In this document: in pieces, positions 19,674 through 52,323 of the stretch | Layout of the letters: each line of letters starts with the position of its first letter | Numbering within the stretch: the first letter of the stretch is position 1 | Assembly: GCA_032128875.1 (NCBI GenBank) | Contig: JAVLKG010000004.1 | Coordinates: 192,001-256,000 of the forward strand | Direction of reading: 5' to 3' | Source: Candidatus Melainabacteria bacterium 17Bon1m | GTDB taxonomy: Bacteria; Cyanobacteriota; Vampirovibrionia; Obscuribacterales; Obscuribacteraceae | DNA: 64,000 nucleotides | The notes under the pieces: generated by a model | Databases searched by the model: none | What the model saw: only the letters and a program-made list of their open reading frames with translations | What the model was told of the DNA's origin: nothing | Position numbers and translations under genes: made by a program

Positions 19674-21314
19674 ATGAAGATTGGACCAAAAATTAGCAGT
19701 ATCGCGGGCGGTGTATTTTTTATTTTGCTGCTGACTGGATATTCGAGTTTTGTTTGCGTACAAAATTTAATCGACAGCAATAAAACCGCTCTCAAGACTG
19801 TCAAAACCCTTCGCGAACTGGAAAACCTGCTTGGGCGGGTCGCTGATTTCGAAAGCAACGGTCGGGGCTATGTTTTGTCCGGTGACAGAGACTTTATTCA
19901 ATTAAACGAGGCTTCGCTAAAGGAAGTCGAAGATTCAATCAACACGCTAAATGAGTTGACCAAGGACGAACCGGAGCGCGCTAAGAATTTAGCCGAGCTA
20001 TTGCCACTGGTTCAAAGCAAGGTTGAATTTAGCAAATCATTGATGAACACTATGCGTTTAAAGGGAAGTGCAGAAGCCATTGCGCTTTTTAAGACTGAGC
20101 GTGGAAGGATGCTCATGGATGAAATACGGCATAAAGTCAGCGATCGCGTGGCTTTCGAAGAAGAGGTCCTTCAAAAGCAGCTGGCAAATTCTAAGTCCAC
20201 GGCAAACAGCACATTCTTTTCCACCATATCTGGTGGCATCTTGGCTCTAGTTTTTGTGTCACTCTGGAGTTTCATTATCGTTCAGGGACTGCTCAATCCA
20301 ATACAAAGGCTTGGCCGCGCAATGGAAAAGGTTGGTGCCGGACGTTTTGAGCCTGTTACCGGCATTGACGCAAGAGATGAACTGGGCGATCTTTCTTCCA
20401 CCTTCAATAATATGGTTAACGGGTTGAGAAGAATTGAAGAAACTTACATTGGCAATAACGGCAACTCACCAGCACACGCAATCTCTCTGGTGCGGCAACA
20501 CGTTCACGCATTCAGTTTCGTCATCAATGATTTGCTTGAAGCTTCCAATCAGCTTTCTAACGGCTTTGAGGGGCAACCGGAAGAGCTTCAAACATCGCTT
20601 GAGCAAATCAGAATCTTAAGCAGGCAGTCGAAAGAGACTTGCGATTTGATCGATGAAATTGCCCAACGCTTGACTCGCTCTGATGAGTTGCGTCGCACTG
20701 GACATCGTACTCTCGACGAGATAGATGAGCAAGTCAATCGAGTTTTGACCGAAGCCGATTCTTCAGTGCAACGTGTAAAAGGGCTTGCAGAGCGCATTCA
20801 CGATTTAGATGGATTGTCCGTAATTATGGACGATATGGCAAACCGAGTCGGCATTCTTTCCATGAGTTCTCAAATCGAAGCCAAAAAGAATGGCGGTGGA
20901 TTTGAAGCTTTCGCTGATGAAATGAAGGACTTGGCAGAGCGTATGCGTCAAGAAAGCGTCAAGGTGAAGCATCTTCTATTTACAATGGAGCGAACCATTT
21001 ATAGGGCTGCCGACGACAACGAGCAAGCGCAAGAAGTAATGCGAAAGGCGATTACAGTGATCGGCCAGTTGCACACAAAGCTCGACACTTTATTGGAGCC
21101 AATTACCGAGGCGGGCACACGAGCGCATACGCTCGAGGAGCGATTGGAAAGACAGAGACATCAAATTATGGAATTCGAGCACATACTAGAGCGAGCAAAC
21201 CTGACTTCCGAACAGAAGCAGTTTTTCATCAAGCAGGTCAATTCGACCGCGCAGGAAGTGAACAACTTTGGCACTGAGCTGGGCGTCTTGCTTGAAAAGC
21301 CCTCTTCTTCGTAG
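19674..21314 (+). CDS. CHASE3-HAMP methyl-accepting chemotaxis-like protein, degenerate signalling domain
   Basis: TM-CHASE3 (ESNGRGYVLSGD, GRMLMDEIR)-TM-HAMP (DELGDLSSTFN)-MCP-like coil (IEAKKNGGGFEAFADEMKDLAE). Confidence 0.85.
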   Translation: MKIGPKISSIAGGVFFILLLTGYSSFVCVQNLIDSNKTALKTVKTLRELENLLGRVADFESNGRGYVLSGDRDFIQLNEASLKEVEDSINTLNELTKDEPERAKNLAELLPLVQSKVEFSKSLMNTMRLKGSAEAIALFKTERGRMLMDEIRHKVSDRVAFEEEVLQKQLANSKSTANSTFFSTISGGILALVFVSLWSFIIVQGLLNPIQRLGRAMEKVGAGRFEPVTGIDARDELGDLSSTFNNMVNGLRRIEETYIGNNGNSPAHAISLVRQHVHAFSFVINDLLEASNQLSNGFEGQPEELQTSLEQIRILSRQSKETCDLIDEIAQRLTRSDELRRTGHRTLDEIDEQVNRVLTEADSSVQRVKGLAERIHDLDGLSVIMDDMANRVGILSMSSQIEAKKNGGGFEAFADEMKDLAERMRQESVKVKHLLFTMERTIYRAADDNEQAQEVMRKAITVIGQLHTKLDTLLEPITEAGTRAHTLEERLERQRHQIMEFEHILERANLTSEQKQFFIKQVNSTAQEVNNFGTELGVLLEKPSSS

Positions 21315-49252: not shown

Positions 49253-49504
49253 ATGTTTAGAGATTCAGCTCAATCAAAGGCTGCTTTGCGTTTTCTACGG
49301 CTGCTTTTCTATGCGCGGCAAGATGATCGCAATGGTGGAGGGCTCAAACCGCAAGATTTGTTCGAGCGCTCTGGAATGAGTAATGTGCGTGAAATGGAAG
49401 AAGTGGTGAAGATTTTGCGCGCAAATAAGATGATGGGTGCTTCCAATCGTGCCTTTGTCATTACTCAAGAAGGTATCGATTACCTCCTAAGAAACGAGCA
49501 TTGA
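49253..49504 (+). CDS. Small hypothetical protein, winged-helix-like
   Basis: Helix-helix-helix-hairpin pattern ending FVITQEGIDYL. Confidence 0.65.
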   Translation: MFRDSAQSKAALRFLRLLFYARQDDRNGGGLKPQDLFERSGMSNVREMEEVVKILRANKMMGASNRAFVITQEGIDYLLRNEH

Positions 49505-49551
49505 TTACTGGAGTGACCTTGATTGCTTAGGAGAAACGAGCAATTGCTTAG

Positions 49552-49581
49552 AAAAAGAAGGTCGCCGGAGTGCCGGCGACC
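49552..49581 (-). terminator. Intrinsic terminator for the copper-storage gene
   Basis: GGTCGCCGG-(4)-CCGGCGACC 9-bp stem followed on the minus strand by TTCTTTTT. Confidence 0.75.
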
Positions 49582-49644
49582 CTCGCTCTATCTGTGGTTT
49601 CGAACTTTGGTTTGTGCCTCAGTTTGAAACGTTTTTTTGATTGC

Positions 49645-50091
49645 TTACTTGCAGCAGTCCTTGCCGCCACCGGCTTTCACCGTGTTGGTGCAAGCGTCTG
49701 CGCAAACATTGCACTGATCGATGCAGTCCTTGAGGGCTTCATCTTTCTGATCTGCACACACCTTGGCGCACTTCTTGCAGGCTTCTGCGCAAGCAGAGGC
49801 GAGTTTGGTTGCCAGTGAAGATCCACGAGTTTTTAGATCTGCGCTGGCTTTGCACAAAGTGATGCAATCTTTGACTGTGTTTATTGTGGCTTCGCTCGCA
49901 CCCTTGCTTTTCAAATGTTCTAATGCCTTTTCGCAGGCTTCGGCGCATTTGTTGCATTCAGTTGCGCAGGTTGCGTGTTTTGCAGCATCTGCAATCTTGA
50001 TGCCGTTGCTGTTGCCGCTGTTGGCAAACGCTACGGATGTTGTGAAAAACGCCATGGCCAAAGCCAATACGGTCAAATAAAAGCCTTTCAT
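49645..50091 (-). CDS. Four-helix-bundle copper-binding/storage protein (Csp/DUF326 family), Sec signal
   Basis: Three CxxxCxxCxxxC motifs plus CxxxC and a terminal CC (16 Cys); AAGGAG RBS; signal ending AFA. Confidence 0.9.
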   Translation of the reverse strand: MKGFYLTVLALAMAFFTTSVAFANSGNSNGIKIADAAKHATCATECNKCAEACEKALEHLKSKGASEATINTVKDCITLCKASADLKTRGSSLATKLASACAEACKKCAKVCADQKDEALKDCIDQCNVCADACTNTVKAGGGKDCCK

Positions 50092-50099
50092 TGCTTTTC

Positions 50100-50165
50100 T
50101 CCTTTTGAATGAATATTTAGAGAGTGACTGTCTGTGGAGGTTTTCAGCTCTCTAAATCAAAAGGA
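50100..50165 (-). promoter_or_regulatory. RBS-sequestering stem-loop formed by the end of the upstream ORF
   Basis: mRNA UCCUUUUGAUUUAGAGAG (50165-50148) pairs with CUCUCUAAA(uauucau)UCAAAAGGA (50124-50100), covering the csp SD. Confidence 0.75.
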
Positions 50166-50553
50166 CCCTCAGCTCGAGGTACCGCTTGTTTTTCGAATGC
50201 ACCTGTTTTACTGGTTTTCTAAAGATTGGTTGAACCGCAGCAAGGCGAACCATGTGCGCGGTAGGCGTCCAAACGGGCGCGTTATATGGTACTTGCGCGT
50301 TTTTAGCTTGTTTGACTGTGACATCAGTGCGATCGACTGCCAGATTTGTCGGGCTGGACTCCTGACAGCAGTCCGCCATTTGCGAGCACATGCAGCTATC
50401 GGATTCTGAAGCAGACTGTGCCGCTGTCGCAGACTCAACTGCCGGCTTTATGCAGCAAGAATTCTGACTTGCCACAGCAGGCAGTATCGTCAAACTGAGA
50501 AAACTCAGTAACGCTAGTAAGAAGTTGATGCTCGGTCTTGTGATGTTGTTCAT
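50152..50553 (-). CDS. Cys-rich exported leader-type protein upstream of the copper-storage gene
   Basis: Signal peptide (LPAVA-S); CC and CxC-x5-CC clusters; Pro-containing linker; basic/hydrophobic C-terminus RYLELRVLLI. Confidence 0.75.
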   Translation of the reverse strand: MNNITRPSINFLLALLSFLSLTILPAVASQNSCCIKPAVESATAAQSASESDSCMCSQMADCCQESSPTNLAVDRTDVTVKQAKNAQVPYNAPVWTPTAHMVRLAAVQPIFRKPVKQVHSKNKRYLELRVLLI

Positions 50554-50775
50554 GAAATCCGAACGGACGTAATCCGAGTGACGAGATTCCTGTCTTCATG
50601 ATACCCGCCGAAAGCCCAATTTTTGTAGCTTTCTGGCGATTGGTTGTCTTGGCATCATGGGGCTGAGCTGACGACCACCTGAGCATATGTAGATGCAGGG
50701 TTTTTCGAACATGTTCCCGCCCTGTAAACTAGCGAGATCGAATAATGGAATTCCTTAGACCGAGGGAGTCGCCGT

Positions 50776-52323
50776 ATGGGATTTTTGTGCTTGCGTCCGA
50801 TAAAGTCCGTTTTGCCGGTATTGCTGGCTGTCGGCGCAGTCACTGTCACGCTGCCTGCCGCCTCAGGGCAGCCGATTACTCCTTCTGATATTGAAGCTGG
50901 CGCTTCCTCTCTCGACCAGCAAGCCGTATTTCAACGGCAGACTACAAGCTCTAACCCCGGAACCACCGGCGGAGGCAGCGCTACGGATAGCGACAATGCT
51001 ATTGAAGTTGGGGATTATGCTCGTGCTGAGTCAGTCGCCTCGGAGCGATTAAAAACGGTGAAAGGCGGTGTTGCTGAAATAGCTTTGCGTTTGTCCCTTA
51101 TCGAAGCAAGAATGTGGCAAGGCAAATTTCAGACTCTGCCGAAAGAATTGAAGATTGTCAGTTCTATGCTCAGCAAGACTGAAAATGTTTCTCCAAATTT
51201 GATAGCGCGTTACCTGGATGATCAATCGTGGATAACGCAGATTGGCGGAGATCCTGTGAAGGCAGAAGCGCAGGCTCGAGAGGCTATCGACAATTGGAAG
51301 AAGGCGCAGCAAACCGACGTCTCTTTTCTTTGTGGTGGCATCGATCACCTAGCTCAGTTGCTTGAAGACAGAGGTGCATTTGCTGAAGCGGCAAAGTGGT
51401 ATCAAGAATCCTTAGCACTGCATTCGAAAGTGCAAGGACCACGTTCTGTCGCTGCAGCCAATCAAATGGAAAAACTTGGAGCACTTGCTTTTAGAAACGG
51501 CAATCAGGCTTTAGCGCAAAAGATGTATGGCGATGCGCTATCAATCAAGGAAGGCACGAGAGCAGTTTTTCAACAGTTTGCTCCGCAAAGAGCAGAAGAT
51601 GCCGTCTTCTATAGATTTCTGCCGGGCGCCCCCAACGCCTCTCGCGAGACAGCAGACGGTGTTACACGCGAGAAAATAACTGCCAATGGAGTCACTGTCG
51701 AAGCTGCGCTTCTGACTAAAGGGGCTGATGTGCTGAAGAACTGCAAAGCAATGGTGCGTATTACTAATAATGGTGACTCGCCAATTAGCGTTCTTCCTCA
51801 AGGACCGGATTTGATCATTTTGAAGCCGAAGATTCAGCTGGCAAGGCAAGTACAAGGTGAGTCGCTTGCACAATCTATCGAGAAGAAAGGTGAGGGAAAA
51901 GCGAAATGGATTCGCTTTTGGGGCTCGCAAGCGACCACGACATCAACAACCAATATTCTCGCAAACGGCGGAGGATTCTACCCCTACGGCGGATTTATGT
52001 CGCCGAATTTTGGCTATGGCGGTCCAATGGGCTACGGAGGCAACTCCTGGTACAACAACAGCGGCGGCATGACGACAATGGTTACGAGCGTTCCGGACTT
52101 TCAAGCTCGTGAGCGTGCTTATCAACGCGCGCAGGCAGTATCGGAGCAAACGCAGCGTCAGGCCGCAGATGTTCGGGACAGCCAGTTGGGACCTACAACA
52201 TTGAATCCGATGGGGCGCATTGTCGGTTGTCTGTACTATGACCAGAACAATTTCGATGAGGCGACTCTGCGTATTCCCGTTGGAAAAGCAGTGTTCGAGT
52301 TCAGGTTCTACCATTTGCGATAA
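50776..52323 (+). CDS. Secreted TPR protein with C-terminal beta-rich and Gly/Tyr-rich region
   Basis: GAGGGAG RBS; signal peptide; TPRs (AEAAKWYQESLAL, AQKMYGDALSI). Confidence 0.82.
   Translation: MGFLCLRPIKSVLPVLLAVGAVTVTLPAASGQPITPSDIEAGASSLDQQAVFQRQTTSSNPGTTGGGSATDSDNAIEVGDYARAESVASERLKTVKGGVAEIALRLSLIEARMWQGKFQTLPKELKIVSSMLSKTENVSPNLIARYLDDQSWITQIGGDPVKAEAQAREAIDNWKKAQQTDVSFLCGGIDHLAQLLEDRGAFAEAAKWYQESLALHSKVQGPRSVAAANQMEKLGALAFRNGNQALAQKMYGDALSIKEGTRAVFQQFAPQRAEDAVFYRFLPGAPNASRETADGVTREKITANGVTVEAALLTKGADVLKNCKAMVRITNNGDSPISVLPQGPDLIILKPKIQLARQVQGESLAQSIEKKGEGKAKWIRFWGSQATTTSTTNILANGGGFYPYGGFMSPNFGYGGPMGYGGNSWYNNSGGMTTMVTSVPDFQARERAYQRAQAVSEQTQRQAADVRDSQLGPTTLNPMGRIVGCLYYDQNNFDEATLRIPVGKAVFEFRFYHLR

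Follow-up and report, generated by a model that had tools for sequence, protein, structure and literature searches.

Sensing of a metal by an exported protein that is still being translated has been demonstrated for just two leaders, both of them proline based, as far as the accessible parts of the literature go. CutF, encoded ahead of cutO in Rhodobacter capsulatus, carries a CxxxC motif, with a PPP motif at a distance of 45 residues, and is EF-P dependent, according to the available text of PMC9973294, PMC8456105 and bioRxiv 2025.02.05.636593. CruR (Bp2923, DUF2946/PF11162) of Bordetella pertussis carries CxxC and RAPP, with Rho termination over a 162-nt gap, turned off by Cu, as described in the accessible part of PMC9426467; its arrest is shown in the accessible part of PMC12992588. 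Arrest peptides that depend on the stop codon also exist (PMC10987492, accessible in part). In its available text, the survey of PMC9973294 required PP within 15 residues of the C terminus, and surveys with PP or RAPP filters of this kind cannot detect the leader described here.

We analyzed a window of 64,000 nucleotides from Candidatus Melainabacteria bacterium 17Bon1m, in which an initial annotation had pointed to a Cys-rich leader in front of a copper-storage gene (csp). The two-gene unit itself is confirmed. We consider that it may be an ON switch acting on translation in the manner of CutF, in which the ribosome makes a proline-free pause at the stop codon or immediately before it, and we give this reading about an even chance (roughly 0.5). 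That the end of the leader gates csp translation in cis, in one way or another, is quite likely.

The leader and the csp gene

The leader ORF (positions 50152..50553, minus strand) encodes a 133-aa, Cys-rich, predicted exported protein of no known family and ends in KNKRYLELRVLLI followed by TAG. Residues 1-28 (50470..50553, minus strand) have the pattern of a Sec-type signal peptide, with a basic, hydrophobic N terminus closing with AVA at 26-28, and AlphaFold predicted a helix at residues 7-27 and no folded domain (pTM 0.27). The six Cys (33, 34, 54, 56, 62 and 63) form the clusters CC (33-34), CMC (54-56) and CC (62-63) at 50365..50457 on the minus strand, and the final cluster is 70 residues from the C terminus. 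This agrees with the annotated arrangement (CC; CMC-x5-CC; no PP or RAPP), and a motif check of the 133-aa protein found no PP, RAPP, CxxC or CxxxC. The protein had no match in Pfam or NCBIfam.

The csp gene (49645..50091, minus strand) starts 60 nt after the leader stop, as annotated, and by sequence homology encodes a Csp-like four-helix copper-storage protein of 148 aa with 16 Cys. The protein scored above the cut-off for DUF326 and below that for TIGR04401 Csp1 (32.7 vs 100 bits), and it matched RkCsp3 (6zif) with an E value of 1.7e-6; at the sequence level, this supports homology to a Cys-lined four-helix bundle. No twin arginines are present in its signal peptide or in those of the family's Csp-like proteins (L002-L024). 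Csp1, a described exported Csp, uses Tat according to the available part of PMC7558416; the Csp-like protein of this family is possibly exported by Sec, judging from its signal peptide. The genome encodes another Csp-like protein, more divergent in sequence, whose gene (G000:C15:48160-48579, minus strand) has no such leader. A literature search, with most subscription papers outside its reach, found no description of a leader controlling csp.

An intrinsic terminator with 12 pairs and a U tail (49557..49584, minus strand) closes the two-gene unit. In an RNA library of a relative, one contig covers precisely 49586-50667; another, from a different study, ends at 49585. This is a weak hint that leader and csp are on one transcript ending at the terminator. 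The RNA runs X1 and X3 cover the whole stretch as one 24-kb contig at flat depth, may be DNA or the source, and so carry no information on transcription. A promoter of csp's own in the gap would refute the proposed switch, and a sigma-70 scan of 49450-50850, the leader-csp gap included, found no promoter; this result is weak because the scan misses the leader's own promoter too. A candidate -10 element, TATCAT (50598..50603, minus strand), with a putative function in transcription, lies within a genus-conserved GGCGGGTATyATGAAG box. Between the leader and a divergent TPR gene, a GGGAACATGTTCG dyad at 50706-50718, whose GGGAACA is invariant in 10 same-genus genomes, is a candidate operator or promoter part. 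The TPR gene (50776-52323, plus strand) encodes an exported protein of 515 aa, and a similar gene adjoins the leader in locus L052.

The dN/dS ratio was 0.16 for the leader (10 same-genus copies) and 0.08 for csp, which indicates that the leader is a real conserved gene under purifying selection. Matches to csp were found in 32 of 61 related genomes, and a leader with the same tail was present at 24 of the 30 csp loci retrieved. A leader profile built from 19 sequences returned 85 representatives among 1.84 billion proteins. One built from 74 sequences matched 92 of 104 genomes of the Melainabacteria family and gave three weak matches in 200 other genomes of the phylum, while a word-indexed homolog search with the leader P0082 returned P0082 alone. 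The leader set used below comprises 111 members (112 distinct matches in 150 loci, minus one without the tail). A hydrophobic N-terminal stretch followed by a Cys cluster was found in 106 of the 111, CC in 108 and CxxC in 19, and most columns are unconserved (mean column identity 15%, alignment A3).

The stem over the csp ribosome-binding site

The Shine-Dalgarno sequence (SD) of csp, AAGGAG (50099..50104, minus strand), stands 7 nt before the ATG. In the predicted fold, the last four codons of the leader, its stop and the next 4 nt (50148..50165, minus strand; containing an anti-SD) form the 5' arm of a stem whose 3' arm (50100..50124, minus strand) consists of 50124-50116 and 50108-50100 around a 7-nt bulge. 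These 18 pairs fold exactly as annotated and hide five of the six nucleotides of AAGGAG, so the SD is indeed mostly buried. The annotated second anti-SD in the loop, CCUCC (50136..50140, minus strand), is also present and can pair with GGAG when the 5' arm is blocked.

The significance of the stem at the focal locus alone depends on the interval folded: the z score was -1.87 for 50175-50080, where 10 of 200 shuffles fold equally well, and -3.58 for a narrower interval. In all 12 same-genus loci, minimum-energy folding returns this long stem, and z was below -2 in 35 of 46 loci. This comparative evidence places the stem beyond chance, and the annotated stem is kept in same-genus homologs. Formal covariation, which the annotation had called for, is not claimed, because the alignment-based approach failed: RNAalifold on a MAFFT alignment gave a consensus of only -0.7 kcal/mol, with double changes in 2 of 11 pairs, since A-rich bulges misalign. 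The variation in pair type among stems is partly due to register shifts. The stem was also considered as an intrinsic terminator and rejected, as it has no U tail.

We then computed the ensemble cost of opening the ribosome-binding site (RBS; -16 to +4), both for free RNA and for RNA carrying a 29-nt ribosome footprint. The model was applied to 89 of the 111 loci (ATG, SD, gap of 40-160 nt); the other 22 were excluded as orphans or for lack of an SD or a wrong automatic start. A ribosome at the leader stop lowered the opening cost by a mean of 3.3 kcal/mol, and by more than 2 kcal/mol in 57 of the 89 loci. Among control gene pairs of the focal genome (254 of 320 pairs), the mean was -0.1 kcal/mol and 12 of 254 exceeded 2 kcal/mol. 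The mean cost over the 89 loci was 9.3 kcal/mol for free RNA and 9.5, 9.0, 8.8 and 8.8 with the P site at codons -20, -14, -11 and -8, falling to 6.8, 6.8 and 6.0 at -5, -3 and -1. In the model, only a ribosome within about the last five codons opens the RBS, and one 8-20 codons upstream has little effect. The PPP of CutF likewise lies within its last five codons, as stated in the accessible part of PMC8456105. On this geometry, a stall at RAPP or PP (-14 to -11) was rejected as the opener of the RBS.

With one value per genus and partner, the gain exceeded 2 kcal/mol in 28 of 37 groups, among which kin are still not independent. Cognate leader and RBS halves gave 3.86 vs 0.69 for 528 cross-genus chimeras, with the cognate pair higher in 32 of 37 cases, and the model thus indicates that the RBS-hiding stem co-evolves with its own leader. 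In 27 hand-picked loci outside Melainabacteria, some of them near-identical and compared with controls that come from the focal genome and are not matched to theirs, the mean gain was 4.0, with 17 loci above 2 and nothing at -14.

The annotation had also stated that a ribosome paused at the last codons would melt the stem. This holds for most modelled loci and less well for the focal one, where the gain was only 1.3 kcal/mol with the ribosome at the stop (genus median 1.3) to 2.8 with the P site at -5, and SD unpairing was unchanged (0.34 vs 0.34). The focal gate is among the weaker ones, as the SD can be hidden again by the loop CCUCC and by a hairpin at the AUG. The mean SD unpairing probability under the ribosome constraint rose from 0.29 to 0.45 over 24 loci; it is a weak measure, and opening energy with controls was therefore used.

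Any terminating ribosome would briefly melt the stem, so the RNA results cannot separate stalling from plain translational coupling, in which each termination event opens the stem for a moment and the leader's tail serves as a signal for degradation, retention or partner binding. The gate does sit exactly where any terminating ribosome stands, and all three stop codons occur among the leaders. We regard this explanation as unlikely in view of the tail, which is described below.

The gap could instead be the site of CruR-like Rho-dependent termination, with the stem incidental. CruR acts in this way with its gap of 162 nt (PMC9426467, accessible in part), and paralogues of the leader in the focal genome, with gaps of 114-182 nt, have no RBS gate (0 of 5 over 2 kcal/mol). 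At the focal locus, however, the gap is 60 nt, purine rich and paired, the stem lacks a U tail, and the co-evolution targets the RBS; transcriptional control of this type is very improbable here.

The C-terminal tail, Cys spacing and partner genes

The leader ends in a conserved tail, KRYLELRVLLI plus stop (50152..50187, minus strand), which is a candidate stop-proximal arrest motif; the family consensus is [YF]-[LI]-x-x-R-x-[LF]-L-I-stop. Among the 85 library proteins, 83 have Tyr or Phe at -9, 66 have Arg at -5, 84 have Leu at -2 and 73 have Ile at -1; these counts are partly circular in that the search profile includes the tail. In 37 genus-by-partner representatives, the Tyr codon is TAT in 20 and TAC in 15, Arg is encoded by both CGN and AGR, Leu at -2 is present in all 37 and uses all six codons, and the stop is TAA in 22, TGA in 13 and TAG in 2. 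The tail is therefore conserved at the peptide level, and the idea that it is kept purely for RNA pairing was rejected, since codons vary while residues stay. Synonymous divergence in the tail is about half of that elsewhere in same-genus copies (0.32 vs 0.62-0.73), and a synonymous swap between GTC CTT TTG and GTT CTC CTG within the genus preserves the anti-SD.

In the focal genome, 2 of 4472 long frames end in [LF]LI, and a loose tail regex gave 9 matches there vs 2-9 in trimmed controls, which is not significant alone. An independent test used a DNA pattern of the tail alone, scanned over 185,579 genomes. It gave 103 matches. Of these, 57 fall in frames of less than 70 aa and are attributed to chance, and 39 fall in frames that are Cys-rich and leader-like. 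The 39 span Bacteroidota, Ignavibacteria, Zixibacteria, Eisenbacteria, BRC1, Acidobacteriota, Rokubacteria, Desulfobulbaceae, Proteobacteria and Melainabacteria. The Cys clusters and the YLxxRxLLI-stop end are thus conserved far beyond the Melainabacteria lineage. The 32 downstream proteins scanned included 11 outer-membrane efflux proteins, 2 AhpC/TSA matches, single matches to HMBD, DUF3347, TonB plug, FtrD, AraC, DUF2279, DUF4154 and DabA, and 11 without a match, two of which resemble MerP/CopZ below the cut-off. Seven of 19 tail-scan leaders tested scored above the cut-off for HYC_CC_PP, and the other 12 had no family. PP within 15 residues of the C terminus was found in 20 of the 39 tail-scan leaders and 24 of the 111 family leaders.

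The distance from the final Cys cluster to the end is 58-77 residues in the family (sd 3.1, n = 106), whereas that from signal to Cys is looser (sd 9.1); in 26 tail-scan leaders, the median Cys-to-end distance was 69 and the two distances were equally tight (sd 7.0 vs 6.1). A stretch of about 70 residues would be somewhat more than is needed to cross the exit tunnel and SecY, going by the figures in the accessible part of PMC9973294 (about 30 plus 17). RAPP stands just before the tail in 8 of the 111 relatives and AAPPP in 3. In all 8 RAPP and all 3 AAPPP leaders, Arg(-5) and the last Ile are both lost, whereas none of the 92 other linked leaders has lost the two together. This suggests, on the basis of about three lineages, that the tail and RAPP/AAPPP do the same job. 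In the RAPP carriers, the stem is still beyond the reach of a ribosome stalled at RAPP, which the idea of a motif swap leaves unexplained.

These data bear on the explanation by plain coupling. Known protease tags are non-polar and located at the free C terminus, and the tail resembles them in both respects; it is also kept in orphan leaders, which have no partner. A degron, however, requires no fixed distance of 58-77 residues to a Cys cluster, and decay of the tail, in some cases to an end in Glu or Lys, goes together with RAPP/AAPPP. Moreover, the last Ile is lost in 5 of 8 orphans vs 4 of 92 linked leaders without RAPP/AAPPP.

The orphans are eight leaders without a same-strand downstream gene (L094, L096, L098, L099, L100, L136, L141 and L148), seven of which belong to one genus. 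They are followed by a convergent gene, by a hairpin resembling a terminator, or by no clear gene. They keep open frames, their Cys and most of the tail, and in six of the eight the ends drift to LLN, ILD or WLI. In the seven compared, tail pN was 0.25 vs 0.54 elsewhere, with synonymous sites saturated.

The genes after the 111 leaders were grouped from 19 Pfam-scanned examples plus motifs: 66 encode csp, 15 small Cys-rich exported proteins, 11 exported Cys/His (GYLxDxxC) proteins, 7 CusB/CzcB-like proteins, 3 outer-membrane efflux proteins and 1 another exported protein, and 8 leaders have none. The 15 small proteins (after L060, L067, L077, L081, L091, L114, L134 and others) are unannotated, 78-101 aa long, with repeated CC pairs, and are possibly periplasmic and metallothionein-like; in L114 an outer-membrane efflux gene is next. 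The 11 Cys/His proteins (including those in L093, L101, L104, L107, L108, L116, L119, L127 and L128) are also unannotated and combine GYLxDxxC with HTxxCxLMxxC. In the loci inspected, a CusB-like HMBD gene is next after the Cys/His partner (L093, L101 and L108, with HMBD confirmed for L093).

Five further tail-bearing leaders, several of them His-richer or Cys-poorer, occur in the focal genome (G000:C7:185639-186103, minus; C5:520312-520713, plus; C7:308326-308676, plus; C1:1044068-1044529, plus; C17 about 19820-20190, minus). Their neighbours are a CzcB/CzcA-like pair, a CzcA-like gene, a cation/proton antiporter-like gene, a gene for a small membrane protein and an unrelated gene, and one paralogue carries RAPP ahead of a degenerate tail. 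Elsewhere in the genome, a 77-aa exported protein with two CC pairs is encoded directly after a rhodanese-like gene (G000:C3:611083-611316, minus strand), and the pair recurs in L059.

The leader could be an exported, metallothionein-like metal binder with a function of its own that is co-expressed with csp and merely coupled. The eight stand-alone copies are intact, with 6-11 Cys and 23-54% mutual identity in the seven compared, and dN/dS is low over the entire protein. On the other hand, the leader has no predicted fold, column identity is low, 103 of the 111 copies directly precede a gene for a metal-related or exported protein, and the RBS stem has co-evolved. CutF, for its part, does not complement in trans and its mature protein is undetectable, in the available text of PMC8456105. 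We consider an independent metal binder quite unlikely.

From the Cys/Met ligands and the Csp partner, the metal would be Cu(I). The switch could also be real and respond to periplasmic redox state or export capacity (disulfides, Sec pulling force) rather than to metal. The CutF model itself works through disulfides (bioRxiv 2025.02.05.636593, accessible in part), csp has many Cys and no Tat motif, and the two AhpC/TSA matches lie downstream of leaders in other phyla. Proteins of metal storage and efflux and HMA/HMBD proteins, however, predominate among the partners, and the chance that the signal is not a metal seems slim.

In the CutF-type mechanism that we favor, leader and csp would form one small operon. 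The last codons and stop of the leader would pair with the csp RBS region, in the predicted and co-evolving stem, keeping csp off. The leader would be exported via Sec during translation, and once the tail reaches the peptidyl-transferase centre, the spacer of about 70 residues would set the Cys clusters just outside the membrane, given the presumed topology. The tail Y-L-x-x-R-x-L-L-I would slow termination or the final elongation steps, and Cu(I) or a similar thiophilic metal on the Cys clusters would prolong the pause, a step suggested by the partner genes and by analogy with CutF, for which it has been demonstrated. The paused ribosome would keep the stem open, and the storage protein would be made.

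We further propose, tentatively and at somewhat less than even odds, that the tail [YF]-[LI]-x-x-[RH/N-type]-x-[LF]-L-I-stop acts as a termination-arrest motif that needs no proline and is so far undescribed. This motif would be the working part shared by a cross-phylum superfamily of exported leaders that sense metals (Melainabacteria, Bacteroidota HYC_CC_PP, Ignavibacteria, Zixibacteria, Acidobacteriota and others), with a periplasmic Cys cluster about 70 residues away setting the dwell of the ribosome at the stop. If so, PP, the assumed stall site in many CutF-like proteins, would not open the RBS. A literature search, with most subscription papers outside its reach, did not find a description of this tail.

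Comparison with known systems

The initial annotation had proposed an analogue of CutF with a different motif in a distant lineage. The proline-free tail supports the different motif. The locus is not a lone analogue, since the tail is common to HYC_CC_PP and many PP/RAPP leaders, and it is better seen as a branch of a wide CutF-like group. The annotated interpretation is partly supported, and stalling and metal dependence would hold by analogy.

HYC_CC_PP (NCBIfam NF047658; Pfam DUF8199/PF26622) resembles the focal leader in size, signal, CC clusters and a hydrophobic tail flush with the stop. All seven Bacteroidota-type tail-scan leaders scored above its cut-off, with five reaching the last profile position, and the nearest named ESM Atlas cluster to the focal leader is DUF8199 (0.94; family on 38% of members). 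Unlike HYC_CC_PP, the focal leader contains neither HYC nor PP and had no match to NF047658 at its cut-off of 28 bits; 3 of the 74 alignment members match, P0082 at 48.6 bits. The tail thus links the focal leader to a named, unstudied family without membership in it. A literature search that could not reach most subscription papers found none naming HYC_CC_PP or DUF8199, and tails of this type may already figure in the survey of PMC9973294, which is accessible in part.

The stop-dependent arrest peptides that precede secA/secDF are likewise exported leaders with conserved residues flush with the stop, and their arrest occurs while the stop codon occupies the A site, which we propose here too. 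In the focal leader as well, conserved residues keep a constant distance from the stop, an observation that is profile derived and partly circular. Those peptides differ from it in their unrelated motifs, their downstream genes and their lack of a Cys sensor, and the arrest motifs listed in the accessible part of PMC10987492 do not include this tail.

Like CruR, as described in the available text of PMC9426467, the focal protein is a predicted exported leader heading a putative copper operon, with a fixed spacing from Cys motif to C-terminal motif. Neither the focal protein nor the alignments of 19 and 74 members gave a DUF2946 (PF11162) match.

If the tail acts as proposed, a proline-free, cross-phylum motif would widen the mechanism, give HYC_CC_PP a function and add a candidate arrest motif, and it would imply post-transcriptional control of a copper-storage protein.

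The closest likeness is to CutF-cutO. At 133 aa, with a same-strand neighbour 60 nt away and a Sec signal as read from the sequence and the predicted helix, the leader falls within the limits of the CutF-like filter in the accessible part of PMC9973294 (at most 150 aa, neighbour within 1000 nt); it lacks the PP within 15 residues of the C terminus. As far as the available texts on CutF describe, both are small Sec-exported Cys leaders with a short gap, a stem-loop hiding the downstream SD, a motif in the last few codons and a downstream gene for excess copper. At the focal locus, the opening of that stem-loop by a ribosome at the leader's end is computational and weak. Unlike CutF, the focal leader has CC/CxC/CC clusters, no PP and, 70 residues from the clusters, a hydrophobic Tyr/Arg tail that ends exactly at the stop; it precedes a gene for a storage protein. 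By analogy, the leader would work like CutF, and by score it belongs to neither DUF2946 nor HYC_CC_PP.
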